Virus record (IMG/VR): IMGVR_UViG_3300009503_000396
Coordinates: 1-58,052 of that record
Length of the DNA: 58,052 nucleotides
DNA from: a virus
Lineage: Duplodnaviria > Caudoviricetes
Strand: one strand, 5' to 3'
Shown here: piece by piece, positions 1,403 through 52,553 of the stretch
Layout of the letters: every line of letters begins with the position of its first letter
How positions within the stretch are numbered: the first letter of the stretch is position 1
Notes under the pieces: generated by a model
Told to the model about the DNA's origin: nothing
The model's database searches: none
Seen by the model: the letters and a program-made list of their open reading frames with translations, nothing else
Made by a program: the position numbers and the translations under genes

Positions 1403-1668
1403 ACCTAAGAGATGACAGAGTGATGGATAAGATAGAGTCTCTAAATGACATCTATCTAAAACTCTTTGGTCAGAAGAGAATTTGTGTCGCTTGTGGAGAG
1501 ACTTTCTATTGTATTGGTAGATGTGAAAAAGACTTTGGTGATAGAACACAACAGATTGACTTGTGCATGTGTAAGAGATGTTTAGTAGGTCAACTGAGAA
1601 AGGACAAGAGAGCATACATCAACAAACGTCTCAGGTGTTATACGTTCTTTAGTGAGGATAGAAAATGA
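1390..1668 (+). CDS. Cys-rich hypothetical protein
   Basis: CVACGETFYCIGRC...CMCKRC. Confidence 0.55.
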   Translation: MLVLNLRDDRVMDKIESLNDIYLKLFGQKRICVACGETFYCIGRCEKDFGDRTQQIDLCMCKRCLVGQLRKDKRAYINKRLRCYTFFSEDRK

Positions 1669-2270
1669 AAGAGTTTCATTTCAGTAAAGGGAACAGGAAG
1701 ATAACAAACAACGTTCTTATCTGGAATCTTCCAGCAATCAGCACTTGCCCTGGAAGTTCAACTGAGTGTAGAAAGTTCTGTTATGCCCTAAAGGCAGAAC
1801 GGTATCCCTCTTGCTTAGCCTCACGGAAGAAGAATCTGGAATTCTCTAAAAGAGAAGACTTTGTAGAACGTATAGTCGAATACTTAAAGAAACGGAAAGA
1901 GACAACAATTAGAGTTCATGAATCAGGGGACTTCTATTGTCCTTCATACTTCTACAAATGGTGTGAAATAGCAAGACAACTACCAGAGAAGACTTTCTAT
2001 GCTTATACCAAGTCATACTTCTTCAACAACTTCTGGGACAATGTACCAAGTAACTTCAAATTAATCCAGAGTGTAGAATCTAGGTTTCCAAACAAAGTTG
2101 ACTGGTCAAGGAGTACAGCTAGAGTGATACTTAGTCCAACAGAGAGGAAGCCAAATGAGTTCATCTGTCCAGAACAATTGGCAAAGAAGAAAGGAAGAAA
2201 GTTAAAGTGCATGGAAGAATGTAAACTTTGTCTGAGGGACAATATCCATGTTTGTTTCCTCAAGCACTAA
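1665..2270 (+). CDS. GP88-family (phage gene product 88) Fe-S/radical-SAM-like protein
   Basis: Motifs KGNxK, WNLPA..TCPG...C...CYA, IRVHESGDF, FYAYTKS and C-terminal CP..C..C..C. Confidence 0.8.
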   Translation: MKEFHFSKGNRKITNNVLIWNLPAISTCPGSSTECRKFCYALKAERYPSCLASRKKNLEFSKREDFVERIVEYLKKRKETTIRVHESGDFYCPSYFYKWCEIARQLPEKTFYAYTKSYFFNNFWDNVPSNFKLIQSVESRFPNKVDWSRSTARVILSPTERKPNEFICPEQLAKKKGRKLKCMEECKLCLRDNIHVCFLKH

Positions 2271-3337: not shown

Positions 3338-3718
3338 ATGAAGTACTCTCTTGTCTTTTCTCACATAGGAACACGTTCATTCTTAGTGAATAGGAGAACA
3401 ATCATTGAAAGGTATGCTGTTTGGCACATGTTTGTTGATGGAGAATTCTATGCCAATATACACTTAACATCTTCTTCTTATCTCCATGAATTGTTGAAAG
3501 AACTCTCTGACAAGGATGGAGCAATATCTTTTGACGAGGATGAGTGGAAACTAATCAAGTATTGTTTAGACCATACAAGGAAGTGGAAGATATTTGCAGA
3601 AGCAAGAGACACACTTAGAAAACAAGGAAGAGAAGCCATGTTCAATTACCTCAAAGAGAAATTAGCTGTTCATATACTTTCAGACAACTTGAAGGGAGTT
3701 AGATGGCAAAGAAACTAA
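3338..3718 (+). CDS. hypothetical protein
   Basis: 126-aa ORF in co-directional array. Confidence 0.6.
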   Translation: MKYSLVFSHIGTRSFLVNRRTIIERYAVWHMFVDGEFYANIHLTSSSYLHELLKELSDKDGAISFDEDEWKLIKYCLDHTRKWKIFAEARDTLRKQGREAMFNYLKEKLAVHILSDNLKGVRWQRN

Positions 3719-4008
3719 GAGACATACTCGACAAAGTTATAGACTCCATCCTTCTCATTGGCTATCCAATCTACCGTCTCAAGTGGAAGATAGTCTCTTG
3801 GAGAGAAGAACGTAAGCTATACAAGACAGAACAATGGAAGTTGATGTTGTATGGATATAAGACATGCATGTTTTATAGAGATTGGGGAGAGGGAAATGAA
3901 GTCTGCACAAGGAAGCTTGATAGTAAATTAAATTGTTTCTTTGGTAATGTACATTGTGACAAGTATAGATGTAAAGTTTATATCAATGACCCAATCAAAT
4001 GTTGGTAG
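3703..4008 (+). CDS. hypothetical protein, Cys-containing C-terminus
   Basis: ORF with SD GGGAG upstream. Confidence 0.55.
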   Translation: MAKKLRDILDKVIDSILLIGYPIYRLKWKIVSWREERKLYKTEQWKLMLYGYKTCMFYRDWGEGNEVCTRKLDSKLNCFFGNVHCDKYRCKVYINDPIKCW

Positions 4009-4017
4009 GTGAAATAC

Positions 4018-4233
4018 ATGCCTTCACATGGTTCATTGAGCAAGTCAGGGAAAGTACGAACACAACAACCTAAGCGATGGAGCGAACTTGGTCGAAAGAA
4101 TAGAAAAGGAGTACTAATGCATCACTACCACAAACACCTCTCTCCAAGACTTAGCACACGAAGAAGGTATGAGAAATATTTTGTCTTAAAGAGAAGGAAG
4201 GGACAAGTTTACAAATTTATGATACACAAGTGA
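4018..4233 (+). CDS. rps30e: 30S ribosomal protein S30e (eS30) homologue with an internal insertion
   Basis: MPSHGSLSKSGKVRTQQPK...PRLSTRRRYEK matches the archaeal eS30 signature MPxHGSLTKAGKVRxQTPK...PRxxNRxxYxKR; SD GGTGA 4008-4012 five nt before ATG 4018. Confidence 0.88.
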   Translation: MPSHGSLSKSGKVRTQQPKRWSELGRKNRKGVLMHHYHKHLSPRLSTRRRYEKYFVLKRRKGQVYKFMIHK

Positions 4234-4235
4234 AA

Positions 4236-4497
4236 GATGGAGGGTAAGTCTGAAGAACTTTTGTTGTCTGTGCAGACTTTTTACTTTCCCTTCATCCACG
4301 AGTGGGAGTTGACAAGTCTGTTGATGATTTTTCAGTCTATTAGACTAATCTACTTGTCAGCTCCCAAATTGGCCGATGAGAGTCTTAGAATAGGTTTCAA
4401 GTCTGTTAAGAGATTCAACTCTCATCGGCCAACTCCAAAGAAGTCGAGATGTCTTTCGAGTATCTTCAGTCTTTAAGGAAGTAGTTACCTCTTTCCT
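4236..4497 (+). ncRNA. candidate structured RNA: consecutive long hairpins downstream of eS30
   Basis: Stems 4236-4244/4288-4296, 4304-4317/4352-4365 and 4369-4383/4418-4432 (perfect 15 bp); mismatches are G-U on the + strand; further weak hairpin with UUCG loop at about 4446-4466. Confidence 0.6.
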
Positions 4498-4520
4498 CTC
4501 CTGCAAATTGATTCTTTAAC

Positions 4521-4534
4521 AGAAAATTTATAAG
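4521..4534 (+). promoter_or_regulatory. archaeal BRE/TATA promoter
   Basis: AGAAAA-TTTATAAG about 35 nt upstream of ATG 4570. Confidence 0.6.
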
Positions 4535-4569
4535 TCAGTAAAGTAACGTGTAGAGTAGGATGGAAGAGG

Positions 4570-4839
4570 ATGGAACCAATTCGTAGACACAAAGTCCGCT
4601 GTCTTATTTGCAAGAAAGAAGGTGTAGTAGAAATTCAAGGAGGAAAGATACTTACGAGTGGTTGGTACTATTATGGAAGGATGGACATGAATGCTTGTCA
4701 TACAAACAAGTATGTGTACCTCTTTACACCAGAAAACAAGAAGAACCCTTGGAGACGTATAAAGAACCCAGACTATGATCCTAATGTCAAGAGAAAATAT
4801 GTTGAGATATGGGAATGTCCAAAATGTGCAGAAGAATAA
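4570..4839 (+). CDS. zinc-ribbon-like hypothetical protein
   Basis: CLIC at N-terminus and WECPKC at C-terminus. Confidence 0.65.
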   Translation: MEPIRRHKVRCLICKKEGVVEIQGGKILTSGWYYYGRMDMNACHTNKYVYLFTPENKKNPWRRIKNPDYDPNVKRKYVEIWECPKCAEE

Positions 4840-4850
4840 AGCATGAAGAA

Positions 4851-4937
4851 CTCCGAGAGAAGGGTAAGCACGTGAGTCTAACATTTTTCTTCAGTCTCCG
4901 AGGTATGTTTACTCTCGTGCTTGCCCTCTAAACGGAG
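4851..4937 (+). other. intergenic bulge-helix-bulge (BHB) RNA motif closing a 70-nt hairpin (candidate EndA-processed intron/circular RNA)
   Basis: CUCCG-AGAG-[AAG]-GGUAAGCACG pairs with CGUGCUUGCC-CUCU-[AAA]-CGGAG: a 4-bp helix with 3-nt bulges on opposite strands. Confidence 0.6.
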
Positions 4938-4943
4938 GTTAAT

Positions 4944-5240
4944 GTGTTGAAAATTACAACTTTACGACCTCTTTGGAAACAGATAACCTTTGAAGAAAAT
5001 GAACCAGGGATCTGTTGGAATACATCAATGGCAGAAGAACGAATATTCTATGTGAGAGCTGGAGACAAGATGTGTGCTGTAGGAATGATACGGAGAGGAC
5101 GCAACTGGAATGACTATGGTGCAGAAGGAATGCACTGTGCAGATTGTCCATACTTCCTTCACAAGAAAGTAATGGGAAGAGCAGAGAAAGAACTACTGCA
5201 TGAATTGGAGGAGACTTTGAAGAGAAGAATAAAGGTGTAG
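4944..5240 (+). CDS. hypothetical protein
   Basis: SD GGAGG 4934-4938; C..C..CADCPY. Confidence 0.6.
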   Translation: MLKITTLRPLWKQITFEENEPGICWNTSMAEERIFYVRAGDKMCAVGMIRRGRNWNDYGAEGMHCADCPYFLHKKVMGRAEKELLHELEETLKRRIKV

Positions 5241-23281: not shown

Positions 23282-26110
23282 GTGACCTCAATGAAATTGG
23301 CAATGGTTGAACCAACTTATCTAAGTGCTAAAGTACCGAACAACAAATGGATGGAAGATATGACAGATGAAGAGAGACAAGTGAATCTGCCAGTAGCATA
23401 TCAACAATGGTTCAATTTATATTCCTTACTTACACAAGGAGCAACTGTCTACTTGGTACCACCAAAGCCACAGTATCAGGACCAATGTTATGATGGTGTG
23501 ACAGAGGTCTATACTAGAAGTGGTTGGAAGAAGTTTAAGGATGTCACTCTTGAAGATGAAATTTTAAGTCTAAACCCAAAGACATTGGAAATGGAATATG
23601 TTAGACCTATCAGAAAACAGGAATATCCTTATTCCGGCAAAATGTTTCATTTCATTGGCAAAGAAGTTGATTTAAGAGTTACAGAAGATCACAACATACT
23701 CTACCTTCACAGGGTTAAAGGACATCCAGATAAATACATCATTAGATTTGCAAAACCCTCAACATTACCAAAGAACTTAGGGTTTCCATCTAAAGGAGGC
23801 AACTTTACATTCTCAACCACTCCCAGTGAAATTGTTTTTGAGGAATATAGAGGAGAAAATGGACGAACATATCCAAAGAGAGTATTTAAAGCTGAAGACT
23901 GGTTCAGTTTTGTAGGATGGTATCTTTCAGAAGGATCTTCGGGTCAACATAACAAACATTACCATGTTTGCATATCACAAACAATCTATGCAGAAGAAAT
24001 CAAACAATTACTAGAACGAATGGATCTGCCATACTACTTTGATGGTAGAGATTTCGAAATTGCCGACAAAAGACTCTATGAATTCTTTAAACAATTTGGT
24101 AAAGCTGAAGAAAAATTTATTCCAAGAGAAATGCAGGATTCGATTTATCTTCCATATCTAATTGATAGTCTTTTGAAGGGAGATGGGAACAAAAGCAGAA
24201 CAGAATATTATACTAAAAGCAAACGCTTGGCCGATGACGTTCAAGCTGCTCTAATTAAATTAGGTTTCAGAGCAAACATCAGAAGAAATAAAGATGGAAG
24301 TTATGTGGTACATTTTTCCAAGAAGAATTCTTGGTGTCGAAACGTGATAGTTGAGGAAGTCCAAAATGAGATGGTCTATGATGTAACTCTGCCCAAGAAT
24401 CATATAATGCTAGTTAGAAGAAATGGTAAAGCAGTCTGGAGTGGAAACTGTTATGTTGTAAATGCAGGGATAGTTCTTCCACATCTACAGTTGTATCAAA
24501 ATAGAAATGTCTGTGTACTTAGCAAGTTCAAAGCTGAAGCTAGACCTGGAGAAGAATTAGAACTCAAGAAATTAGTTGAAGAACTAGGTTATGAAACATA
24601 TCAATGTCCATACTACTTTGAAGGTGAAGCTGAATGTTATGATGAGGAAACTGAAATTTTAACAGAGAAAGGTTGGAAATTCTTTAAGGATTTGGATGCA
24701 ACAGACCTAGTGATGACTTATGATCCCATTTCCAAGACTTTATATTTCCAGAAACCAATTGCTTACCAAAAATACTTTTTCGATGGTGAGTTAATTCGGT
24801 TGAAAAATAGATATATTGATGCTCTTGTTACTCCAGACCACAATGTATTTTTGAAGACTACAACAGGTAACCTTATGTTTGCAAAGGCATCTGTTCTACC
24901 AAAGAACTTTTATCTTATCATAACAGGTGTTTGGAAACCTCACAGAGAAGTTCGTGAAATAATTCCTGAATTTCTTAGAGATAAAATTTCTATAGAGACT
25001 TGGCTTAAGTTTTTAGGATGGTATCTTTCTGAAGGATATGTTAATTTCAACGAAGAAGCAGGCAACTATCAAATTTGGATCTGTCAAAATAGGAAAGCCC
25101 ATCCAGAAAAATATCAAGAAATAGAAGAACTTCTAAAGAACATGGGCTTTTCTGTTTCTCATGGAGAGAATGGTTTAATTGTTTACTCGAAAGAGTTAGC
25201 CCAGTACCTTAAACAGTTTGGTCAAGCTAATTCAAAGTTTATTCCTCAAGAAATCAAGCAACTTGATCCTTCTCTTCTAAGAATTCTGATCGATGCAATG
25301 ATGAAAGGAGATGGACATAATAGTAAGAAGTCAAAATATTATTCTACTTCATCAAAACAATTAGCCGATGATTTCCAAGAAATCTGTTTGAAATGTGGGA
25401 TCCCAGCATTTATAGGCTTTCAGTACAAAACTCTTAATGGGAAGACATTCTTAACTTACAGAGTTTATATCAGAAAAGCTAAACAAGAAACTGTTTTTCA
25501 CCAGTTTATTCCTGAAAAAGTCAGATATAAAGGATTTGTATACGATGTAACTGTTCCTGAAAATCATATTCTTTTAGTCAGAAGACATGGAAAGCCCTTC
25601 CTTAGTGGAAACTGTAAATGGCTTAATGAAAATGTCTACATTGGTGGGTATGGCATAAGGACTTCCAAGAGAGCCCATGCATGGTTGGAAGAACAGTTTG
25701 GGTGTAAGATAATTCCAGTTGAGACAGATGAGTGGTTGTATCACTTAGACTGCTTAGTATTTCCTATCAGCAATGACTACTGTATTATTTGTGAAGATAT
25801 ACCTCAAGACACTAAGGATCAGATAAAGAAGTATACAAATGTCATTGAAGTACCATACGACAACTGTCTTGAAGGAATAACTAACAGTTTTAGACTTAAT
25901 AGTTATGTCTTGAACGCTGATGTCTCAAAGAGTGTAACTGGAATGCAAGCACTGAAACAAATCAAGTCTGAACAACAGAAACTTACAGAGATATGTGCAG
26001 ATTTGGGTTTGACACCAGTATTCATTGACTTGTCAGAGTTCCTCAAGTCAGGAGCACTCCTCTCTTGCATGATACTTCATTTAACATGGGAGGAGTGTTG
26101 GTTAGGTTGA
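23282..26110 (+). CDS. amidinotransferase/guanidino-modifying (pentein) enzyme interrupted by two inteins
   Basis: Spliced exteins give A..QW..L, DQ-CYVVNAG, R.GE, FEGEAE, GxRT, YHLDC, EFLKSGALLSCM.LHL. Confidence 0.85.
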   Translation: MTSMKLAMVEPTYLSAKVPNNKWMEDMTDEERQVNLPVAYQQWFNLYSLLTQGATVYLVPPKPQYQDQCYDGVTEVYTRSGWKKFKDVTLEDEILSLNPKTLEMEYVRPIRKQEYPYSGKMFHFIGKEVDLRVTEDHNILYLHRVKGHPDKYIIRFAKPSTLPKNLGFPSKGGNFTFSTTPSEIVFEEYRGENGRTYPKRVFKAEDWFSFVGWYLSEGSSGQHNKHYHVCISQTIYAEEIKQLLERMDLPYYFDGRDFEIADKRLYEFFKQFGKAEEKFIPREMQDSIYLPYLIDSLLKGDGNKSRTEYYTKSKRLADDVQAALIKLGFRANIRRNKDGSYVVHFSKKNSWCRNVIVEEVQNEMVYDVTLPKNHIMLVRRNGKAVWSGNCYVVNAGIVLPHLQLYQNRNVCVLSKFKAEARPGEELELKKLVEELGYETYQCPYYFEGEAECYDEETEILTEKGWKFFKDLDATDLVMTYDPISKTLYFQKPIAYQKYFFDGELIRLKNRYIDALVTPDHNVFLKTTTGNLMFAKASVLPKNFYLIITGVWKPHREVREIIPEFLRDKISIETWLKFLGWYLSEGYVNFNEEAGNYQIWICQNRKAHPEKYQEIEELLKNMGFSVSHGENGLIVYSKELAQYLKQFGQANSKFIPQEIKQLDPSLLRILIDAMMKGDGHNSKKSKYYSTSSKQLADDFQEICLKCGIPAFIGFQYKTLNGKTFLTYRVYIRKAKQETVFHQFIPEKVRYKGFVYDVTVPENHILLVRRHGKPFLSGNCKWLNENVYIGGYGIRTSKRAHAWLEEQFGCKIIPVETDEWLYHLDCLVFPISNDYCIICEDIPQDTKDQIKKYTNVIEVPYDNCLEGITNSFRLNSYVLNADVSKSVTGMQALKQIKSEQQKLTEICADLGLTPVFIDLSEFLKSGALLSCMILHLTWEECWLG
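23486..24448 (+). mobile_element. intein with LAGLIDADG homing endonuclease (321 aa)
   Basis: Starts CYDGVTEVYTRSG; VTEDH; GWYLSEG; LLKGDG; ends VYDVT...WSGN before Cys. Confidence 0.92.
24635..25612 (+). mobile_element. intein with LAGLIDADG homing endonuclease (326 aa)
   Basis: Starts CYDEETEILTEKG; VTPDH; LGWYLSEG; MMKGDG; ends LSGN before Cys. Confidence 0.92.
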
Positions 26111-30328: not shown

Positions 30329-30361
30329 GTCCTACATTAATGAAAGAAAAGGAGGTTGTGT

Positions 30362-32371
30362 ATGGAAATAAGATCTGGTGTTGTACTGGATGCGAAAGAA
30401 TCTGAGATTCCTGTGATTGTTCTGGAAAAGAAGAAAGGAACAGACTATGGAGAAATCTGTTTCATGGGCGACTGGCACTTAGGTTGTCAACCAGCTAATT
30501 CCTTAGTAGGTCTGGGTACAAGAATACAAGATGTGAGAGTTGGTGACTATGTAGGACAAGGACAAGTTCTAAAGACTTACAAGAGAGAGCCAAAGGAAGG
30601 AGAAAAACTTTATACATTGTTCATTACTGGGCTTCTTCCACTTAAGTTCACTGGGAATCATCCACTTCTAATAGCAAGAGGGAGAGGAAAGGCAAAACAT
30701 GGAGGAGTCTACATTAAGCCTGAGATAGAGAATTTTGCATTTGTCAGAACTGAAGATGCCAAAGTTGGTGACTGGGTTCTTCTTCCCAAGCTCCCTGAAG
30801 AACAGATGAAGATCTACCTACGACCTCAAAGGACTTGGCACAACCATACAGAGCTTACAGTTGACGAAGAAATAGCTAGATTCCTTGGATTTTATGTTGC
30901 TGATGGATATGTACATCGAAGCAGCATAGTTCTTTGTTTCAATCCTAAGAAGGATGGTAAGTTAATCAACAAATATAGAACAATTATAGAGAAAAGATTT
31001 GGACGGAAATGTACACTTGACAAGAGAGGACAACTAAGTTTCTCTTTTAAAGCATTGGCTGAATATCTCAAGAATCTAGGCAAGGTGAGGACAAAACGTG
31101 TTCCTCTGGAGATCCTTTATTCTCCTCGGCACATTGTTGAAACATTCTTAGAAGGATACATTGACGGGGATGGTTGGAAAGTTAGAAATGAATACAGAGC
31201 CACAACTGTTTCTGAAGTGCTAGCATATCAACTAAGTCTTCTTTCACCTAAAATTGAAAAGCTAATCACTATCCAGGCCTATGAACCTAAGAGACATATA
31301 TGGCCTAATGGCAAAATGTATCGTGAACACAAATGTTATCACATTTCTATCCCAATTGAGAGAAAGAAACAACGATACGGAGTCCTGAAAGAAGGACTAA
31401 CATTACGTATCGAAGATATCTTCGTGGAACCGCTGAGAGAGCCTGTGTATAACTTAACTACAACTTCCAATACGTACTATGCTCCAATTATAGTTCACAA
31501 TTCAGGTAATTTCTCTCTTGGACAATACATAGAGTACTTAGCTTATCTACTAGAACATCCTGAAATAAAAGTAGTTCTGATGGGAGACTTGATAGAAATG
31601 GGTGCATTGAGTCCTTATGGTGCTTCAGAAGAGAAAGTAGGCTCAATGCAGTTACTTGATGTTATCAGATTGTTAGAACCAATCAAAGACAGAATAATAG
31701 TCATGTTAGAAGGAAACCATGAAGAGCGTTTCTGGAGAGCAACAAAAGGGACAGATACAGTAACCAAGTCTGTTGCAGATGCTCTGAAAATACACCCTCT
31801 CTTACCAGGTCCAGAGAGAGGACAACTCTTCATGGTCAAAGTAGGAGAACAAGTATATTCTGTTTATGCTATTCATGGATCAACTGGTGCAACTATTTAC
31901 AAGGCAACACAATTAAGCAAAGTCTTTGCTAATATCCACACATCTCTAGCTGTACACGGACACAATCATCAGATATTCAAAGATCACAGAACATACTATG
32001 GAGTACGAGAGATAAAAGGAAAGTACTATCTAACAGTGCATGAACAGTATTGGTTGACAACTGGATGCTTTGTGAAGAACTTAGGGTATGCAGAGAAAGG
32101 AGCAATGCCAGTGACGAAGATAGGAGCACCATTTGTCAGATTCTATGCAAATCGTGAAGCTATTGAGATTATTGATGATCCAAGAATAACCTATGGAATA
32201 GGAACTGGGTCAAAGAAGATAGACTTGAAGAAGATAGGTTTGAAAGGGTTAGACTTGGAAAAGTACGAAGAACTGAGAGGATTTGGTGGCACACAAGTCT
32301 TGAAGAAAGGACGATGGGTGGAAACTGAGATATGTCCTTCTGTAGAATTGGATACGAAAGAGGAAGCTTAG
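30362..32371 (+). CDS. calcineurin-like metallophosphoesterase with intein
   Basis: GDWHLG | S, MGDLIE, GNHE, IHG, GHNH. Confidence 0.9.
   Translation: MEIRSGVVLDAKESEIPVIVLEKKKGTDYGEICFMGDWHLGCQPANSLVGLGTRIQDVRVGDYVGQGQVLKTYKREPKEGEKLYTLFITGLLPLKFTGNHPLLIARGRGKAKHGGVYIKPEIENFAFVRTEDAKVGDWVLLPKLPEEQMKIYLRPQRTWHNHTELTVDEEIARFLGFYVADGYVHRSSIVLCFNPKKDGKLINKYRTIIEKRFGRKCTLDKRGQLSFSFKALAEYLKNLGKVRTKRVPLEILYSPRHIVETFLEGYIDGDGWKVRNEYRATTVSEVLAYQLSLLSPKIEKLITIQAYEPKRHIWPNGKMYREHKCYHISIPIERKKQRYGVLKEGLTLRIEDIFVEPLREPVYNLTTTSNTYYAPIIVHNSGNFSLGQYIEYLAYLLEHPEIKVVLMGDLIEMGALSPYGASEEKVGSMQLLDVIRLLEPIKDRIIVMLEGNHEERFWRATKGTDTVTKSVADALKIHPLLPGPERGQLFMVKVGEQVYSVYAIHGSTGATIYKATQLSKVFANIHTSLAVHGHNHQIFKDHRTYYGVREIKGKYYLTVHEQYWLTTGCFVKNLGYAEKGAMPVTKIGAPFVRFYANREAIEIIDDPRITYGIGTGSKKIDLKKIGLKGLDLEKYEELRGFGGTQVLKKGRWVETEICPSVELDTKEEA
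30485..31501 (+). mobile_element. intein with LAGLIDADG homing endonuclease (339 aa)
   Basis: Starts CQPANSLV; FTGNHP; LGFYVADG; FLEGYIDGDG; ends VYNL...IVHN before Ser. Confidence 0.92.
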
Positions 32372-37140: not shown

Positions 37141-40100
37141 GTGATTTGCTTGTATGTCATTAAGAGAGATGGGAGAAAGGTCTCTTTCGAAGAAGAGAAG
37201 ATACGAAAAGCAATAACAAAAGCAGCTGCTTCTGTAGGAGAAGTTGATAGACAGAAGATCAATGAGATAACTAAAGCAGTGTTGCAGAAGCTAACAAAAG
37301 AAACAATAAGCGTGGAAGAGATACAAGACAAGATAGAAGAGACTTTAGTACAGTTCAAAGAGTACAAGATAGCAAAGGCTTACATCCTTTATCGACAGAG
37401 AAGAACCAATGCCAGAAGACTAGCTGCTTCCCTTGGTGTGAAGGATGACTTGAAACTGCCAACATCTGCACTAATTGTACTGTCTAAGAGATATCTATTG
37501 AAGGATGAGAAAGGAAGAATAAAAGAGACACCAATGAAGTTATTTAGAAGAGTAGCAAGGGCAATAGCACAAGTAGATGAACAGTATGGTGCTTCTAGCA
37601 AAGATGTACGTAGATTAGCTGGACAGTTCTATGACTTGATGACACAAGGATATTTCCTACCTAACTCTCCAACACTGATGAATGCTGGAGCACCACTTGG
37701 ACAGTTGTCAGCATGTTTTGTCTTGCCAGTGCATGACTCTCTTGATTCTATCTTCTTGACACTATATCATACTGCCAAGATACATCAGACTGGTGGAGGA
37801 ACTGGATTTAACTTCTCTGCTCTCAGACCGACTGGTGATGTGGTGAGAACAACTGGTGGGGTAGCATCTGGTCCAGTGTCATTCATGAGAGTATATGATG
37901 CTGCTACACAAGAGATCAAACAAGGAGGTAAAAGAAGAGGAGCTAATATGGGTATTCTGAATGTTGACCATCCAGACATTCTAGAGTTCATAACTGCTAA
38001 GTCTAGAGGAGGATTAGAGAACTTCAATATCTCTGTTGCTGTTACGGATAAGTTCATGAGAGCAGTACAGTCAGGAGAGACAATACCACTAGTTAATCCA
38101 AGGAACAAAGAAGTCGTACAAAATGTACCAGCTAGAGCAATATGGGACTTGATAGTAGCAGAAGCATGGAGATCTGGTGATCCAGGTCTTCTCTTCTTGG
38201 ACACTATCAACAAGTCTAATTCAAATGTAGTACCAAAGTATGGACCTATAGAAGCTACTAATCCATGCTTAAGTGGAGAGACGTGGACAATGACAAGTAA
38301 TGGTCCTAGGAGGATAAGAGATTTACTTGGGAAAAGGAACCTTGAGCTTATTGTGCAAAATTGTCCATGGCTAAGCCCTGATGGTTTCTTCGAAAGTGGG
38401 GCAAAAGAAACAGTAGAAATCCTAACTAAAGAAGGATTCTCGTTTAGAGCTACACTTGACCACCATGTATTTACTGCCGATTTTAGAAAATTGCAAGTGC
38501 GAGACTTGAAGCCTGGAGATAAACTGAAAATCTCAAGAGGTAAAGGAAAATGGTCTGGAAGATATGGATTTGAAGAAGGATATCTACTTGGTTTGCTCTA
38601 TGGGGATGGAACTCTCACACCTGAGCCTGCACTGTATTCCTGGACCACTGAAGAAGGTTCTAGGGAAGTAAGACAATTAGCTTTCAAGTTTGCTTCTAAA
38701 CTCAAGCATAGGAAAGACTGGAAAGGTTGGCAAAAACCAAACAAGGCTTCGTGTACAAAGATGGCAGTCAGAGGCCTAAGAACTCTTTTAAGAGAGCTGG
38801 GGCTTGAGAATAGGAAGTGCATAACTCCACAAATGGAAGAAGCAAGTCCAATGTTTTATAGAGGATTCTTGCGAGGGCTCTTTGACACAGACGGATCAGT
38901 GCAAGGTACCCAAGAAAAGGGTGTCTCCATTCGGCTAGCTCAACGTGATTTTGCCTTTCTCCAGGCTGTACAAAGAATGCTCCTTAGACTGGGCATTTTC
39001 TCTAGGATCTACAAGAGAAGAGACAAACACTTGCAGAAGTTCAAAGGAAAAGTCTATACCTGCAAAGAACAGTTCGAATTAATTATTTCCAATGAGGACT
39101 TACTTTTATTCAAGGAAATGATCAACTTCACAAATTCAGCTAAGGAAAGGAAGCTAAGAGACCTCTTAGTCCGATACAAGAGAAGATTGAATAAATCTAG
39201 AGACACAGTTACATTTATTGGCATCTCTAATCCGAGAAAAGAACCGGTGTATGACATACAGGTCCCTGGGTTAAACCAATTAGAGGCTAATGGAATAGTA
39301 GTTGGCAACTGTGGAGAATTGCCATTGTATCCATATGAGTCTTGCAATCTTGGTTCAATCAATCTATCTAAGTTTGTGAAGATGAACAAAGAACCACACA
39401 TTGACTGGGAGAGACTAGAACAAGTTGTTAGACTAGCAGTACATTTCCTTGACAATGTCATAGATGCAAATAAGTTTCCATTGCAAGAAATAGAGGCAAT
39501 GACAAAGAAGATACGAAGAGTTGGATTGGGCGTAATGGGTTGGGCTGATCTATTGATTGCACTGAACATAGCATACAACTCACAACAAGCACTGGACTTA
39601 GCTGCTGAAGTGATGAAGTTCATAACAGAGAAAGCAAGAGATGAGTCTGTCAGACTAGGAGAACAGAGAGGAAGTTTCCCAGAGTTCAAAGACTCAATAT
39701 GGCCAAAGAGAGGATACAAGACTTTACGTAATGGAACAGTTACATGTATTGCACCTACTGGGACCATCTCTATACTAGCTGGTTGCTCTCCAGGAATAGA
39801 ACCATTGTTCTCAATTGTCACTGTTAGAGACTTGGAAGAGTCACTAGGTGCTAAGCTGGTAGATATCAATCAAGCATTTGAGAGTAGAGCTATCAAAGAA
39901 GGATTCTATTCTGAAGAGTTGATGGACAAGATAGCAAGAGACTTCTCTATTCAGAAGATACCTGAGATACCAGAAGAAGTGAAGAGAGTCTTTGTAACAG
40001 CACATGACATATCACCAGAGTGGCATGTGAAGATGCAAGCTACATTTCAGATGTATACTGACAATGCTGTCTCCAAGACTGTCAACTTACCATTCACAGC

Positions 40101-40233
40101 TACTCCACATGATGTTGAGAACATCTATTTCCTAGCATGGAAGTTAGGTTGCAAAGGAATTACTGTCTTCAGAACTGGGTCAAAGGGGAAACAAGTCTTC
40201 ACAACTTGTAAGGAATGTGAGGTGGGAGAATGA
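37141..40233 (+). CDS. nrdJ: class II (adenosylcobalamin) ribonucleotide reductase with ATP cone and intein
   Basis: VIKRDG ATP cone; PNSPTLMNAG, LSACFV, GGGTG, TNP|CGE, SCNLGS, APTGTIS, C-terminal CKEC. Confidence 0.95.
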   Translation: MICLYVIKRDGRKVSFEEEKIRKAITKAAASVGEVDRQKINEITKAVLQKLTKETISVEEIQDKIEETLVQFKEYKIAKAYILYRQRRTNARRLAASLGVKDDLKLPTSALIVLSKRYLLKDEKGRIKETPMKLFRRVARAIAQVDEQYGASSKDVRRLAGQFYDLMTQGYFLPNSPTLMNAGAPLGQLSACFVLPVHDSLDSIFLTLYHTAKIHQTGGGTGFNFSALRPTGDVVRTTGGVASGPVSFMRVYDAATQEIKQGGKRRGANMGILNVDHPDILEFITAKSRGGLENFNISVAVTDKFMRAVQSGETIPLVNPRNKEVVQNVPARAIWDLIVAEAWRSGDPGLLFLDTINKSNSNVVPKYGPIEATNPCLSGETWTMTSNGPRRIRDLLGKRNLELIVQNCPWLSPDGFFESGAKETVEILTKEGFSFRATLDHHVFTADFRKLQVRDLKPGDKLKISRGKGKWSGRYGFEEGYLLGLLYGDGTLTPEPALYSWTTEEGSREVRQLAFKFASKLKHRKDWKGWQKPNKASCTKMAVRGLRTLLRELGLENRKCITPQMEEASPMFYRGFLRGLFDTDGSVQGTQEKGVSIRLAQRDFAFLQAVQRMLLRLGIFSRIYKRRDKHLQKFKGKVYTCKEQFELIISNEDLLLFKEMINFTNSAKERKLRDLLVRYKRRLNKSRDTVTFIGISNPRKEPVYDIQVPGLNQLEANGIVVGNCGELPLYPYESCNLGSINLSKFVKMNKEPHIDWERLEQVVRLAVHFLDNVIDANKFPLQEIEAMTKKIRRVGLGVMGWADLLIALNIAYNSQQALDLAAEVMKFITEKARDESVRLGEQRGSFPEFKDSIWPKRGYKTLRNGTVTCIAPTGTISILAGCSPGIEPLFSIVTVRDLEESLGAKLVDINQAFESRAIKEGFYSEELMDKIARDFSIQKIPEIPEEVKRVFVTAHDISPEWHVKMQATFQMYTDNAVSKTVNLPFTATPHDVENIYFLAWKLGCKGITVFRTGSKGKQVFTTCKECEVGE
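38266..39309 (+). mobile_element. intein with LAGLIDADG homing endonuclease (348 aa) at the RNR NPC/CGE site
   Basis: Starts CLSGET; ATLDH; LGLLYGDG; LRGLFDTDG; ends VYDI...VGN before Cys. Confidence 0.93.
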
Positions 40234-47343: not shown

Positions 47344-47779
47344 CTTTCCTTGTTTTGCACTGAAAGAGAATAGGATAATACTATCACGAGAAGAATTAGA
47401 AATGAGGTTGAAAGAAGCACATGAGTCTGGGAAGTCTTGTGAAGTAAGTCTGTATGGTTTCAGCATGTGGTATAACATGGAGCCAATAGAAGAAAGTGTT
47501 ATCCTTGACAAAGTGGTCTACAGCGGGAAGAAGGAAGACTTGGAGGAGTTGGCAGAGAGGAAGTTGGAGGACGGGAAAGAAAGTGTTCTTATCTATGATG
47601 GATCACGATATCTGTTGTTTGTGAAAGAAGAAGTAGACTCACTAGAGGCCTTGAGAAAGATACAGGAACCAAATGTCAAGATAATAACAAATGTGAAAGA
47701 AAAGTTTGTATTCCCAGGGTATCCAAATCTTAAAACTGGTCAATTGAGTAGAGTAATACGGAAGTGGAAGAAGCAATGA
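47336..47779 (+). CDS. degenerate (apparently inactive) AEP primase small-subunit-like protein
   Basis: FP..., VSLY.F, ILDKVVYSG (cf. IDKxxFDxD), IYDGSRYLLFV (cf. FSGxKGxH), FPGYPNLKTG (cf. RxPxTxNxKTG). Confidence 0.55.
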   Translation: MLSFPCFALKENRIILSREELEMRLKEAHESGKSCEVSLYGFSMWYNMEPIEESVILDKVVYSGKKEDLEELAERKLEDGKESVLIYDGSRYLLFVKEEVDSLEALRKIQEPNVKIITNVKEKFVFPGYPNLKTGQLSRVIRKWKKQ

Positions 47780-49938
47780 GAGTTTGTTGGATATCTGATT
47801 ATCCTCTGAAAGGATCATCATTTGGTACTGTGACATATGAACTACTTACACGTATGCCAAAAGAACACTTCTTTGATGTGTTGAGTCTAGCTTACAAAGG
47901 GATGCCTCTGAAGATAGAAGAGAACATACGGATATTTGAATTGGAGAAAGCATACCAATTGACATACTACTTTGAGAAGTTGAAACCGGATGTAATTGTT
48001 CTATTCCACTCATACTGGTTGTTGGATTCTGTGGCATCACAAATGAATACTGCTCCTGGTAAGAAGATACTGTACATTCCAGTTGAAGGAGAAGATGTTC
48101 CATTTGAGTATCGGAAACACTTTGGGACTTATGACCTGATATTAACACCTTCAGAGTATTCAAGACGAGTGTTGAAGAAAGCAGACATAGATGCAAAGGT
48201 AGTTCCTCATGGTGTGGATACCAAGTTCTTCTTTCCAAAGCAGAAAGGTTGGCATGAGTTCAGATTTGGATACCTTGGTTTGAATGACATACGGAAACAA
48301 GTACCACGTGTCATGGAAGCCTATGCAAGACTTAAGCAAGGAACACTGGTTATTGCTGCTGACAAAGAAGGACACTATGATCTTCCATACTTGGCTAAAC
48401 AGTACAACATTGCTCCTATCTTCATAGAACAGAAGTTGAATGGACTAACTATGAGTAGAGAAGCAGTTAGAGACTTCCTTCAGTCACTGGATGTCTACAT
48501 AGCACCTGCAAGTGAATGCTTAAGCCCTGACACTGAGATAGTTACCGAAGAAGGAAAGAAAAAGATCTCACAAATAAGAGTTGGAGAAAAGGTTCTAACA
48601 TCAAAAGGTTGGAGAAGAGTAGAAAGAATTTTCCACCAAGAAAATCTGAAACCTGCTTGTAAACTGACTACCAGCCTTCTGAATGAAGTGGCCTCTTTCA
48701 CAAAAGATCACTTGGTTCTAGCAGCTAAGAGAACTGCTTACCATGGCAAAAAGAAAGCAGGTAAGGTAAGATATTATCCAGTAGGTTCTTTGAAGAGAGG
48801 AGATTTTGTTGCTTATCCAATTCCACAAGGCGAGAAAGAGTTGACTATTAACGTGGATAAGATTGTTGCCCCTAGTAAAGGTCGAAATCAGTACACTACT
48901 TTCTTGTACAAGAGAGAGAAACAGTTGCCTCCAATTCTAAAAGTAGACAAGGACTTCATGTCATTTTTAGGATACTATATTTCAGAAGGCTGTGTTGACA
49001 GGAGGAATGGGCTGATTCTAAGTAACTCTGATCCTCACATATTAAAAGAAATGGAAGACTTGGGCAAGAAGATATTTGGGATTGAGCCACGGAAAAATGT
49101 CCACCAAAAAGGAAGTTACAAACCAGTGACTAACTTGTGTTTTCAAAGTATTAGGCTAGTGAAACTCTTCAGAAATCTATTTGGAGCAAGAAGTTATGAA
49201 AAACATTTGCCTTGGAGTTTCTTACAACTAAAAAATGAATACTTGAAAGCCTTCCTTTTAACCTACATTAAAGGAGATGGTTGCTTCTCGAAGAAAGGTA
49301 ATAGAAAAAGCATTAGAATCTCAACAACTTCAAAAGAACTCTTCGAACAGTTGAAACTGATTTGTTTGAAACTTGGCTTGGTTCCATCTTGTCACACTCG
49401 TAGATTTAAGAACCCTCGGTGGCACACAGAATTCTCATTAAGTATTCATGGGCCTCAAGTCACTTACTTAGGCTTTCCTTCACCTAACAAAGAGAAACAT
49501 CAATTCTTTCTTAGAAGGGGTAAATTAGTCTTGATTCCAATAAAGAAAATTGAAGATACATCATTCAATGAGCGTTGGGACATAAGGGTAGAAGGAACCC
49601 ATGATTTTGTTGCCAATTGTTTGGTACATAATTCATTTGGCTTACCTGCTTTGGAGGCACAAGCATGTGGAGTACCAACAATTGCAATTGATCATGGTGC
49701 CGCAAAGGAAGTATTGAACAATGGTGCTGTCTACTGTAATGTAGCTGACTATCTAGAGACAACAATAGGAAAGATAGCACTCATTTCTGTACCAGACCTG
49801 TATAGGAAGATGAGATTCATGATACAAGTGAAAGAAGCATATGAAAAGACAGCAAGAAAGGCATTGGAGAATGCACAGAGATGGCCATGGGAGAATGCTG
49901 TGACAAAAATGTTAGAAGCATTGGAGGAGGTGAAGTAG
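47776..49938 (+). CDS. GT4-family glycosyltransferase with intein
   Basis: VVPHGVDT, N..RKQ, PASE|SFGLPALEAQACG. Confidence 0.9.
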   Translation: MRVCWISDYPLKGSSFGTVTYELLTRMPKEHFFDVLSLAYKGMPLKIEENIRIFELEKAYQLTYYFEKLKPDVIVLFHSYWLLDSVASQMNTAPGKKILYIPVEGEDVPFEYRKHFGTYDLILTPSEYSRRVLKKADIDAKVVPHGVDTKFFFPKQKGWHEFRFGYLGLNDIRKQVPRVMEAYARLKQGTLVIAADKEGHYDLPYLAKQYNIAPIFIEQKLNGLTMSREAVRDFLQSLDVYIAPASECLSPDTEIVTEEGKKKISQIRVGEKVLTSKGWRRVERIFHQENLKPACKLTTSLLNEVASFTKDHLVLAAKRTAYHGKKKAGKVRYYPVGSLKRGDFVAYPIPQGEKELTINVDKIVAPSKGRNQYTTFLYKREKQLPPILKVDKDFMSFLGYYISEGCVDRRNGLILSNSDPHILKEMEDLGKKIFGIEPRKNVHQKGSYKPVTNLCFQSIRLVKLFRNLFGARSYEKHLPWSFLQLKNEYLKAFLLTYIKGDGCFSKKGNRKSIRISTTSKELFEQLKLICLKLGLVPSCHTRRFKNPRWHTEFSLSIHGPQVTYLGFPSPNKEKHQFFLRRGKLVLIPIKKIEDTSFNERWDIRVEGTHDFVANCLVHNSFGLPALEAQACGVPTIAIDHGAAKEVLNNGAVYCNVADYLETTIGKIALISVPDLYRKMRFMIQVKEAYEKTARKALENAQRWPWENAVTKMLEALEEVK
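48517..49632 (+). mobile_element. intein with LAGLIDADG homing endonuclease (372 aa)
   Basis: Starts CLSPDTEI; FTKDH; LGYYISEG; YIKGDG; ends LVHN before Ser. Confidence 0.93.
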
Positions 49939-49939
49939 C

Positions 49940-50230
49940 ATGGAGAAGAAAGAGATAGAGAAAGTACGATATGTTGAAGGGTGGCGTTGTGAGTTCTGTG
50001 GTGAGATATATCCAACAAAAGAAGAAGCAGAGATGTGTTGGGAAAGACACATACGTTTTGAGATGCAACCTGTATTCTCAATGCAGGATGAGTTCCCTAT
50101 TGAAGTCCTTGTGAAGAAGATAGAAGGAAACTACTATACTGAGATAGCAACATATGAGCTAAAGAAGAAAGAGAAAGTACTGATAGAGCGACATGGAGGT
50201 GAAGAAGATGTCAGTGGAAATAGCACCTAG
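49940..50230 (+). CDS. zinc-finger hypothetical protein
   Basis: WRCEFCG..Y....EA..C...H. Confidence 0.65.
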   Translation: MEKKEIEKVRYVEGWRCEFCGEIYPTKEEAEMCWERHIRFEMQPVFSMQDEFPIEVLVKKIEGNYYTEIATYELKKKEKVLIERHGGEEDVSGNST

Positions 50231-52553
50231 AGTATCACAACAAGAGATAGTTCTGGACAAGAAAGAACATGGACGTACTTGGCGAGAGATGAGGATACTT
50301 TGGCATTCTGTAGCACCCTACATTCAATCAGGGTACGGGACAGTAACTAAACAAATGGTCAGCAGACTTTTGAACAAAGGATTTGTAGTCTTTGTCTCTG
50401 CATACTATGGACTACAACCTGGAGGGATAATCAATTGGAACGGTATCTATGTCCTACCAACAGAGAAGAGTCCTAAAGATCCACTAGGTTTTGCTTCTGC
50501 AAAAGAACACTTCAAACGCTTCAAGTGTGATCTAGCAGTATTCCATAGTGATTTCTGGGTCTCATATGAGTTTGCTAAGTCTATGCCAGTATCATTGTGT
50601 TACAGTCCCATAGACCATGAGAACTATCCTGAGAAATGGTTAAGTATTCTAAGGGCATACAACTATGTTGCTGTACCTTCTAGACATGCTGAGAATGAAC
50701 TGAAGAAGTTTGGGATACATGCACACTTCTTGCCACATGGAGTTGACATAAATATTTATCATCCAATGGACAAGACAATGTGCAAGAGATCATTTGGTCT
50801 TAACCCAGAGAAGTTCATCATTGGAATAGTAGCTGCCAACAATGACGAAGAATGCTTTGATGAACTAACAGAAATTCTAACAAGAGATGGTTGGAAGAAC
50901 TACAAAGAAATAAGTGAGAACGACTTCTTTGCCACTCTAAATGAAAAGGGAGAACTGGAATATCAAAAACCGTTGAGAATAGTCATTTACTCAGGAAAGA
51001 GAAAGATGCACTTACTGCAGACTAAGTTTCTAGACTTCTGTACTACCTTAGGTCATGAGCATTATGTTCAAGCATTCAACAATAGAGTGCAAGGAGGCAG
51101 AACTAGCTTTAGAAAAGAAACTTCTGCAGAGATCTTTGGTAAGAGAAGATGCTTCAAGAAGACTGCTATTTGGAAAGGAGAAGACGTAGAATACTTCTAC
51201 CTACCACCTTATAAAAGGAAATGGACTAACAGTGAAAGGTATTATTACAAACCAGAACTTCAAATAAAGATGGATGCATTTCTAAAATTGATTGGCTACT
51301 ATCTTTCAGAAGGTAGCTGTAATAGATATACTGTATTTATCTCTCAAAACGACGGGAGAAAGAAGGAAGAGATGCTAAGAGACCTTAGAGATTTGCCATT
51401 CAAAATAGGATCAGGAAAAGGAAAACTTTGGATCAACGATGTACAACTTGCTTCTTACATGAGAACTTTAGGTACTTCGGCAAGTGAGAAAAGACTACCA
51501 AGAGAACTACTAAACCTTAGTTCAAGACAATTAAGGATTCTCTGGAACGCAATTGTGAGAGGAGATGGCTGGAAACACTGCAACTCTGAGGCCTATTCTA
51601 CTACTTCAAAAGAACTTGCTGACCAACTTCAAGAGCTTCTTCTAAAGATAGGTGCTTGGGGTACTATTATTAAGAGAAAGATGAAAAAAGGAAGAATAGG
51701 AAAAAGAACAATAAAACCTTACTCTCAATATATCTACATTATAAGGAGAAATTCTCTTGAGGCTGTTGAGAATAGGCCTTCAAGACCAGGAAAGACTTTC
51801 TTAGAGAAGATCATAGATTATGAAGGAAATGTCTGGTGTGTAGAGGTTCCAAATCACTTAGTGTATGTAAGAAGAAATGGCAAAACAATGTGGTCTGGTC
51901 AAACAAGGAAAGCTTGGGATGCGAATTTTCTTGCTGTCAAGTATTTCTTAGACAACAATCCAGACGCTAAGAAGGATGTGGATGTGATTGTTCATACTAA
52001 TCCTGTGAGTGAGAAAGGAAGAAACCTGTATGAATTGGCACATCAGATAGGTGTAGAACAACATATTGTGTGGAATGAACCTTACTTGTCATATCTGTTA
52101 GGATTTCCTGAGAGTTTGATGTGTAAACTCTACAATGCAATGGATGTGTTCCTATTACTTTCACGTAGAGAAGGTTTCTGCCTTCCAGCATTAGAAGCAC
52201 AAGCTTGTGGAGTACCTTGCATACTTAATGAGTTTAGTGCATTGATAGAACGAAATGACTATGGACGGTGTGGATGGTTAGTAAAGCCTGCCACCTATAT
52301 CTATTCACCACTGAATGCGATAACATCTATACCAGATCCATATAAGGGGGCTGAAGCATTGGAAGAAGCATACAACAATGACTCCAAGAGAGAACACTTT
52401 GCAAAGAGAGCACTGGAGTGTGCAAAACAACAGACATGGGACATTGCTGTGGAAAAGTACTTCTTGCCATTGCTAGAACACATTGGAGAAAATATTCCTC
52501 ATCTGTCAAGTAAGTCTACAGAGAAGAAGTTGGAGGAAAGAAAACTTGCATAG
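50208..52553 (+). CDS. GT4-family glycosyltransferase with intein
   Basis: SGYG, PHGVD, VAANNDEE|TRK, SRREGFCLPALEAQACG. Confidence 0.9.
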   Translation: MSVEIAPRVSQQEIVLDKKEHGRTWREMRILWHSVAPYIQSGYGTVTKQMVSRLLNKGFVVFVSAYYGLQPGGIINWNGIYVLPTEKSPKDPLGFASAKEHFKRFKCDLAVFHSDFWVSYEFAKSMPVSLCYSPIDHENYPEKWLSILRAYNYVAVPSRHAENELKKFGIHAHFLPHGVDINIYHPMDKTMCKRSFGLNPEKFIIGIVAANNDEECFDELTEILTRDGWKNYKEISENDFFATLNEKGELEYQKPLRIVIYSGKRKMHLLQTKFLDFCTTLGHEHYVQAFNNRVQGGRTSFRKETSAEIFGKRRCFKKTAIWKGEDVEYFYLPPYKRKWTNSERYYYKPELQIKMDAFLKLIGYYLSEGSCNRYTVFISQNDGRKKEEMLRDLRDLPFKIGSGKGKLWINDVQLASYMRTLGTSASEKRLPRELLNLSSRQLRILWNAIVRGDGWKHCNSEAYSTTSKELADQLQELLLKIGAWGTIIKRKMKKGRIGKRTIKPYSQYIYIIRRNSLEAVENRPSRPGKTFLEKIIDYEGNVWCVEVPNHLVYVRRNGKTMWSGQTRKAWDANFLAVKYFLDNNPDAKKDVDVIVHTNPVSEKGRNLYELAHQIGVEQHIVWNEPYLSYLLGFPESLMCKLYNAMDVFLLLSRREGFCLPALEAQACGVPCILNEFSALIERNDYGRCGWLVKPATYIYSPLNAITSIPDPYKGAEALEEAYNNDSKREHFAKRALECAKQQTWDIAVEKYFLPLLEHIGENIPHLSSKSTEKKLEERKLA
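50853..51902 (+). mobile_element. intein with LAGLIDADG endonuclease and C-terminal Gln (350 aa)
   Basis: Starts CFDELTEILTRDG; IGYYLSEG; IVRGDG; ends VWCVEVP...RRNGKTMWSGQ before Thr. Confidence 0.88.

Follow-up and report, generated by a model that had tools for sequence, protein, structure and literature searches.

A cluster of hairpins lying directly behind an eS30-like gene in a virus contig probably consists of stem-loop TIGR array units, that is, genes for tigRNA guide RNAs. The contig analysed here (the window) is a 58,052-bp linear IMG/VR virus record with a CheckV completeness of 33%, and its DNA is present in hot-spring metagenome runs, two of which (X1, X2) contain it in full; the runs listed for this DNA include no RNA run. 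Its + strand carries all of its long ORFs, which by Pfam include ribonucleotide reductase, family B DNA polymerase (PolB), glycosyltransferases and several LAGLIDADG inteins. The nearest GenBank relatives of the PolB belong to haloarchaeal tailed viruses, at ~26% identity, and the window is an archaeal-type virus contig. The features discussed below are as follows; bit scores come from model R1, for which only the four window units were used, and z compares a fold with shuffled sequences.

4018-4233, + strand: eS30-like gene; ATG 4018 gives MPSHGSL...; Pfam PF04758 E 1.3e-3, below cut-off
4213-4220, + strand: TATA-like AAATTTAT, 16 nt before unit 1
4236-4296, + strand: unit 1 (H1), stem 4236-4249/4283-4296, R1 61.0 bits, z -3.10; GTCT 4248-4251 then segment A 4252-4261, GTCT 4266-4269 then segment B 4270-4279
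4304-4365, + strand: unit 2 (H2), stem 4303-4317/4352-4366, z -5.43; GTCT 4316-4319 then segment A 4320-4329, GTCT 4335-4338 then segment B 4339-4348
4369-4432, + strand: unit 3 (H3), perfect 15-bp stem 4369-4383/4418-4432, z -6.38; GTCT 4382-4385 then segment A 4386-4395, GTCT 4401-4404 then segment B 4405-4414
4439-4499, + strand: decayed terminal unit, GTCT 4451-4454 and 4469-4472, stem largely lost
4524-4531, + strand: TATA-like AAATTTAT upstream of the 89-aa gene, assigned from sequence only
4570-4839, + strand: 89-aa zinc-ribbon gene between the two array parts; homologue in the related virus G001 54% identical
4861-4927, + strand: separate unit (H6), stem 4861-4877/4911-4927, R1 63.4 bits, z -7.54; GTCT 4876-4879 then segment A 4880-4889, GTCT 4894-4897 then segment B 4898-4907

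The window holds four very stable hairpins and one decayed unit (4439-4499). Three of the hairpins had been described in an earlier sequence-only reading, with closing stems of 9, 14 and 15 bp, and were confirmed at the same positions and sizes. The stem of H1 comprises 9 bp, a U.U mismatch and then 4 bp, and that of H2 has 14 bp, or 15 counting 4303/4366; the G-U wobbles reported for these two stems are present, while the U.U mismatch in H1 had gone unmentioned. AAGTCTG occurs at 4246, 4314 and 4399, as that reading had it, and the recurrent TTCAGTCT at 4331, 4465 and 4890 accounts for all three copies in the window. H6 (about 4864-4924), which follows the 89-aa gene, belongs to the same family as H1-H3 and was absent from the earlier description. 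Linkers between the back-to-back units measure 7, 3-4 and 7 nt.

Comparison with shuffles, the check proposed earlier, bore out the folding of the array: the + strand of 4230-4500 reached -94.5 kcal/mol (z -5.10), a value that none of 200 shuffles equalled. When 70-nt folds were slid along the whole window (mean -10.4, sd 3.7), the lowest was 4861-4930 (-31.8), followed by 4366-4435 (-30.9) and 4301-4370 (-27.5), all three within 700 nt. The two weaker hairpins that had been proposed for 4439-4499 showed no fold signal beyond shuffles (z -0.03), but both GTCT motifs are present there, at offsets 12 and 30, equal to those of the good units. R1 also finds its best non-training + strand match in the window at this place (10.4 bits, E 3.2). 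With motifs at the right offsets and a ruined stem, 4439-4499 is read as one decayed unit.

Alignment of the four window units revealed a common loop plan. Their stems, of 14-17 bp, differ in every copy and end in AGU; the loop of 33-34 nt follows the pattern CU-N10-U..A-AGUCU-N10-U..A, with the second (A)GUCU placed 18 nt after the first, and the 3' arm opens with ACU. The only letters invariant across the aligned units are AGTCT, GTCT and ACT. Half-units were then aligned on GTCT, drawn from nine good units (four from the window and five from G001) and two weak ones (window 4439-4499 and 14561-14621 of L003, the G001 locus); 21 of 22 were used, one being omitted as truncated. TCT was found in 21/21 half-units and the preceding G in 19/21, each of the ten positions after GTCT carried <=0.35 bit, and these variable positions were followed by U in 19/21 and, three positions on, by A in 18/21. 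Each hairpin therefore contains two variable stretches of 10 nt, with short conserved motifs on either side of each.

The stems of the nine good units, counted over 11-14 bp, pair at 117 of 123 positions (113 Watson-Crick and 4 G.U), and their sequences differ. Within the window's four units, 11 of 14 stem pairs are changed on both sides, with 96.4% of cells paired, and only the top three pairs (A-U, G-C, U-A) are invariant; these three are kept in 5-6 of the 6 units of a six-unit alignment (A5). The pairing figures are not independent evidence, because the hairpins were chosen as hairpins, whereas the shared loop plan is independent.

The relative G001 was reached through a gene for a GP88-family protein, encoded 2 kb upstream of the array (window 1665-2270; Pfam PF17338, E 4.6e-35; 185 homologues at E <= 1e-5), which was the sole useful anchor for finding it. 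An alignment of this query with 16 of the 185 homologues led to 33 viral loci. G001, in which locus L003 lies, is a complete 120.7-kb record with terminal repeats, and 65 of the 87 window ORFs match it in the same order, over G001 20-74 kb. R1 was searched against 32 loci: 31 of the 33 GP88 loci (two L011 duplicates omitted) and L002, a distant locus and the only one found in metagenome_contigs with the 89-aa protein (52% identity), which is cut at the gene and has no hairpin after it. Five units were found in L003 (41.2, 31.1, 20.1, 18.9 and 18.7 bits); every one lies on the + strand and combines a new stem sequence with the shared loop plan. Among the other 31 loci only L021 was hit, and weakly (16.6 bits, E 0.64, - strand). 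A second model, R2, built from six units with H2 and H3 held out, recovered H2 (42.8 bits, E 1.5e-6) and H3 (40.6 bits, E 4.9e-6). Run over the window with filters off, R2 returned nothing besides the four units, and thus no match at 4439-4499; over the whole of G001 it confined the units to one 1.2-kb stretch around one gene.

Scans of viral_contigs (IMG/VR) with the single eS30, 89-aa and PolB proteins yielded no close relative, and a scan with the alignment of the protein encoded by that G001 gene, described below as TasR, yielded G001 only. Genome_contigs gave nothing with the GP88 and TasR alignments, nor did GenBank phages give a match by DNA or by TasR protein. As a control, viral_contigs were scanned for the motifs only (two GTCT and AACT), which produced at least 114 single matches; none of the 80 loci listed among them had a convincing stem, the best scoring 23.8 bits with several unpaired positions.

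The gene that the G001 units surround and overlap is an ORF of 338 aa on which Pfam is silent. In NCBIfam it scored weakly against two families, well short of either cut-off (36.4 bits vs 140, and 19.3 vs 100): IS110 RNA-guided transposase at E 3.1e-9 and TIGR-Tas endonuclease at E 9.7e-4. An exhaustive homologue search with the protein returned 106 representatives at E <= 1e-3, and a family profile was made from the query and 39 of these (40 sequences), 37 of which match NCBIfam TIGR_Tas_endo at E <= 0.001. Against the PDB this profile matched 9mty_A (TasR) at E 2.4e-28 over ~290 residues, nearly its full length; TasH chains followed at E 1.4e-13 and the IS621 transposase (8wt6) at E 6e-5. 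The TasR complex in entry 9MTY comes from Faure et al. 2025, according to the accessible text of that paper (PMC12045711). TaTasR (9MTY) is thus the closest solved relative of the G001 family, and its RuvC-like N-terminus, coiled coil and Nop-type C-terminal domain all align.

Residues D13, E66, D105 and D108 are conserved in the G001 TasR family, which suggests an intact RuvC-type site, as judged from the aligned sequences. In this respect the G001 protein differs from the two stem-loop TasR proteins of the Xu 2026 preprint, whose RuvC domains are described as inactive in its accessible text (10.64898/2026.09.09.750476). Two of the G001 units lie in frame within the 5' part of tasR, partly in a stretch of variable length. 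Three guide units in all were noted in frame inside the gene, at L003 13670-13802 and 14561-14621. In one unit, the bases of the 3' arm also encode the conserved NFFLE motif with the putative catalytic glutamate, and thus serve RNA stem and protein at once. The link between the hairpin units and TasR comes from one relative, G001.

The architecture of the units agrees closely with published stem-loop TIGR systems, as far as the accessible text of the two papers describes them. Some Tas clades have tandem stem-loop arrays besides dual-repeat arrays (Faure 2025, PMC12045711); arrays are located upstream of tas, downstream of it or in frame inside it, and conservation in the stems is confined to the bases beside the boxes (Xu 2026, 10.64898/2026.09.09.750476). 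The same is seen here: hairpins stand in tandem with short linkers, their palindromic stems are unlike in every unit and conserved only beside the motifs, and each loop has two variable segments between conserved motifs, of 10 nt here and 8-12 nt in the published arrays. The G001 units occupy all three positions relative to tas, and stem-loop TIGR systems in that text likewise occur in archaeal viruses and phages. Two features differ. One is that the window has no tas gene in its 58 kb. The other is that its motifs, (A)GUCU and U..A, are absent from the sets given in the accessible text of Xu 2026, namely the TIGRFinder motifs CCA, CGA, CTA and CAA with TG and CG, and CUU/UG for PateTasR (10.64898/2026.09.09.750476); because these letters are not among the published ones, the terms box C and box D are applied here by position only. 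[quoted passage not shown]

Based on these likenesses, we propose a plausible course of events, in which transcription, processing and loading are taken by analogy. [quoted passage not shown] Transcription of the window array's + strand would begin either with the eS30 operon or at 4213, where the TATA-like box is a possible promoter of the array's own judging by its letters. The transcript would be cut in the short linkers into single hairpins of ~60 nt. In each, (A)GUCU would precede every spacer in the box C position and U-N-W-A would follow it in the box D position, and a dimer of a TasR-type protein may bind the hairpin through these motifs. The two spacers would then pair with opposite strands of adjoining DNA sites, leading to binding or cutting. 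The protein itself would be encoded in the missing part of the genome or supplied in trans. As to the promoter, AAATTTAT occurs three times in the window, a total equal to chance expectation; the copy at 4524 is the TATA-like sequence previously noted after the array, and together with the second copy at 4213 it flanks the array. When 683 kb comprising the window, the whole of G001 and the other loci were screened for targets of the spacer pairs (10+10 nt in both orders, gap 0-2, <=3 mismatches), the sole hit was a self-artefact, and ten shuffled controls gave 2-10 hits.

No tas-like gene was found in the 58-kb window with five queries: the L003 TasR protein, NF052498, NF033542, PF02371 and the TasR-family profile (A6). 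In G001, a 3.7-kb cassette lies between the homologues of the window gene at 3703-4008 and of eS30; it contains a membrane protein, a zinc-ribbon protein, tasR with its units and two opposite-strand genes. In the window the 3703-4008 gene abuts eS30, the tasR cassette is absent from this place, and the units sit just after eS30 and after the following 89-aa gene, whose zinc-ribbon Pfam matches are all weak. Since the window record is incomplete, tasR may lie elsewhere in the genome.

Comparison with related strains indicates that the array site is variable. Contigs from three other hot-spring runs are ~88-93% identical to the window in the flanking genes and do not cover the array. A contig of strain X3 joins 4251 to 4487, 71 other letters replacing 235 nt, and other strain contigs stop at 4240 and 4485. 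The 4864-4924 unit is kept with substitutions in some strain contigs, and elsewhere 179 nt have become 68. The loose ends of the strain contigs carry two GTCT motifs at a distance of 13-14 nt, the letters in between being different, and differ from one another by indels that are not multiples of three. This pattern, read from the assembled letters, fits a presumed exchange of guide units and argues against a conserved 79-aa protein in the overlapping ORF.

These observations bear on an unlikely but tenable alternative, according to which the array is a relic of TIGR descent whose tasR has been lost, the hairpins being inert or serving, behind eS30 and the 89-aa gene, only to form transcript ends or to stabilise mRNA. 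The window without a tas gene, the missing cassette at the syntenic site and the decay of the 4439-4499 unit (z -0.03) all agree with it. So does the placement of each hairpin group just past a stop codon, together with the T5 runs contained in three of the loops; such runs can end archaeal transcription. Neutral decay, however, would erode stems and motifs, and H2, H3 and the 4864-4924 hairpin keep near-perfect stems of 15-17 bp with intact motifs. The contig is also only part of a genome, as its CheckV value and its collinearity with 20-74 of the 120.7 kb of G001 indicate. Finally, the units found here in related strains are different, so that turnover, and not decay alone, is at work at this site.

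That the window's virus has no Tas at all and carries a true orphan array, its guides being loaded onto the TasR of co-infecting G001-type relatives or of the host, is also unlikely, and we put it forward tentatively. Orphan or virus-borne mini-CRISPR arrays offer a parallel, being guide arrays in a virus with no effector gene nearby, as in the window. CRISPR arrays differ in having identical direct repeats and single spacers, whereas the window repeats only motifs of 4-6 nt. Were the orphan array real, the nuclease could be turned against rivals or soaked up by a decoy, the differences in units between strains with ~90%-identical flanks would record a fast arms race, and the site would provide a natural system for studying spacer gain in TIGR arrays.

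Returning to guide RNA genes as the preferred reading, several signals favour RNA from the + strand, although the numbers are small. Among the 123 stem pairs, + strand mismatches include 4 G.U against 0 A.C, with wobbles in H1, H2 and the 4864-4924 hairpin; the models score 61-66 bits on the + strand vs 15-26 bits on the - strand; and the units in G001 point the same way as tasR. We consider improbable an explanation at the DNA level, in which the inverted repeats are sites of recombination, replication start or packaging, or small mobile palindromes. Such an element would be in keeping with the - strand of 4230-4500, which folds equally well (z -5.81), and with a site that is a replacement hot spot between strains. 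Mobile palindromes, however, keep their arms and vary the middle, and the reverse is found here. The motif is strand-specific, with AGTCT occurring 8 times in the array region (0.84 expected) and AGACT twice, both as stem complements, and A.C mismatches, unlike G.U, are wanting. No stem arm recurs in the rest of the window at <=2 mismatches beyond chance-level 14-mers. Moreover, the G001 units surround a gene for a protein that uses guide RNA.

The neighbourhood of eS30 was at the centre of the sequence-only reading, which had suggested an undescribed, processed small-RNA cassette, possibly a protein sponge or a ribosome-directed RNA. The cassette survives in the form of the stem-loop tigRNA architecture; the word undescribed does not, this kind of array having been in print since 2025. 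The ORF before the array is a real but divergent eS30 homologue: in the PDB it is closest to an archaeal S30e chain, 9fhl_e (E 2.8e-5), whose N-terminal motif is near-identical. The array begins 3 nt past its stop codon and folds stably, as a structured ncRNA unrelated to Tas, such as a sponge or an RNA tied to eS30, might do. We regard such an RNA as very improbable. In G001 the next gene follows eS30 (L003 16573-16809) after 31 nt and the units lie 1.4-2.9 kb upstream, around the TasR gene, so the tie to eS30 is not conserved; nothing supports the sponge or ribosome-directed roles, and the Tas evidence opposes them. Rfam, too, assigned no family at gathering scores anywhere in the window, and at E <= 10 its hits in window 3900-5000 were noise, consisting of miRNA, snoRNA and riboswitch look-alikes at E >= 0.35.

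The eS30 gene is of some interest in itself. With a 12-residue insertion, this viral eS30 is kept at 65% identity in the two collinear viruses, the window and G001. In the accessible text of a 2019 survey of viral ribosomal proteins (PMC6375957), eS30 is named for a murine retrovirus only, and a literature search listed no paper whose title concerned eS30 in archaeal viruses.

The 79-aa ORF at 4237-4476 follows the eS30 TGA in the same frame; that it is a true gene, to which the hairpins are incidental, is scarcely credible. An 80-codon open frame is uncommon in non-coding DNA, and its codon score of 0.231 is one that small genes of the window also reach (mean 0.200, sd 0.079), but that test does not discriminate, as 14-17% of spurious ORFs score as high, the stretch has 45.7% purine vs 57.6% in the window, and X3 has lost the 235 nt. 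The ORF had been put forward as a threat to an RNA interpretation should it prove to be under purifying selection. It found no homologue beyond itself in a word-based search of 5.8 billion clusters and no Pfam match, and the objection fails with the replacement of the stretch in related strains. The ORF, within the window frame 4009-4476, shares the frame of eS30, with TGA and one codon between them.

Other known hairpin or guide systems were considered and set aside. A CRISPR array, in which near-identical direct repeats of 25-40 nt separate single spacers, was rejected because the aligned units share only short motifs. Archaeal box C/D sRNAs have C (RUGAUGA) and D (CUGA) boxes in K-turns and guide methylation of rRNA or tRNA; here no Rfam family was found at gathering scores, and at E <= 10 the only two snoRNA models (E 1.2 and 6.9) lay on the - strand. 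For H/ACA sRNAs the stems are too long for the fixed ACA distance and there is no ACA box. [quoted passage not shown] Like nick sites for primase or HUH proteins and precursors resembling those of miRNAs, these two also leave the twice-repeated motif with 10-nt gaps unexplained.

The bridge RNA and DEDD recombinase of IS110/IS1111 elements (IS621, 8WT6) are a more distant parallel. They share with the system in G001 a remote protein kinship, seen in the NCBIfam match at E 3.1e-9, and paired guide segments in helix-closed loops. A bridge RNA is nevertheless one molecule with two loops, located where a mobile element ends, whereas the present units form an array of single loops, and the G001 family is far closer to TasR (2.4e-28) than to IS621 (6e-5). 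The window contains no IS110 gene.

The hairpins are best explained by a known system and not by a new RNA class. What is new is an array of a kind known since 2025 that has its own box letters and lies in an archaeal-type virus with the effector gene not in the window; either the window or the G001 contig may already be listed in the supplements of Faure 2025 or Xu 2026 or in the TIGRSafari resource. The published array finder, as described in the accessible text of the latter, works around tas loci with fixed motif sets (10.64898/2026.09.09.750476), so an array with other motifs, away from tas, would escape it. TIGR-Tas was described only in 2025. A collinear pair of viruses, one with TasR and an array and the other with an array alone, offers, along with the differences in units between strains, a case for studying guides in trans and array turnover.

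Other features of the window were recorded in passing. LAGLIDADG/intein-type insertions occur in at least five of its large genes, the insertion-bearing ORFs being 23282-26110, 30356-32371, 37141-40233, 47764-49938 and 50193-52553; the genes are DDAH-like, one unnamed, ribonucleotide reductase and two glycosyltransferases. By tblastn, four of these ORFs match G001 over just 18-43% of their length, and the ribonucleotide reductase has no match there. A tRNA scan of the window found none. A 3.4-kb contig from the probable source run, similar in depth, has short matches to 4278-4298 and 4506-4523, on opposite strands; it may represent a further part, also with an array, of this genome or of a related one.
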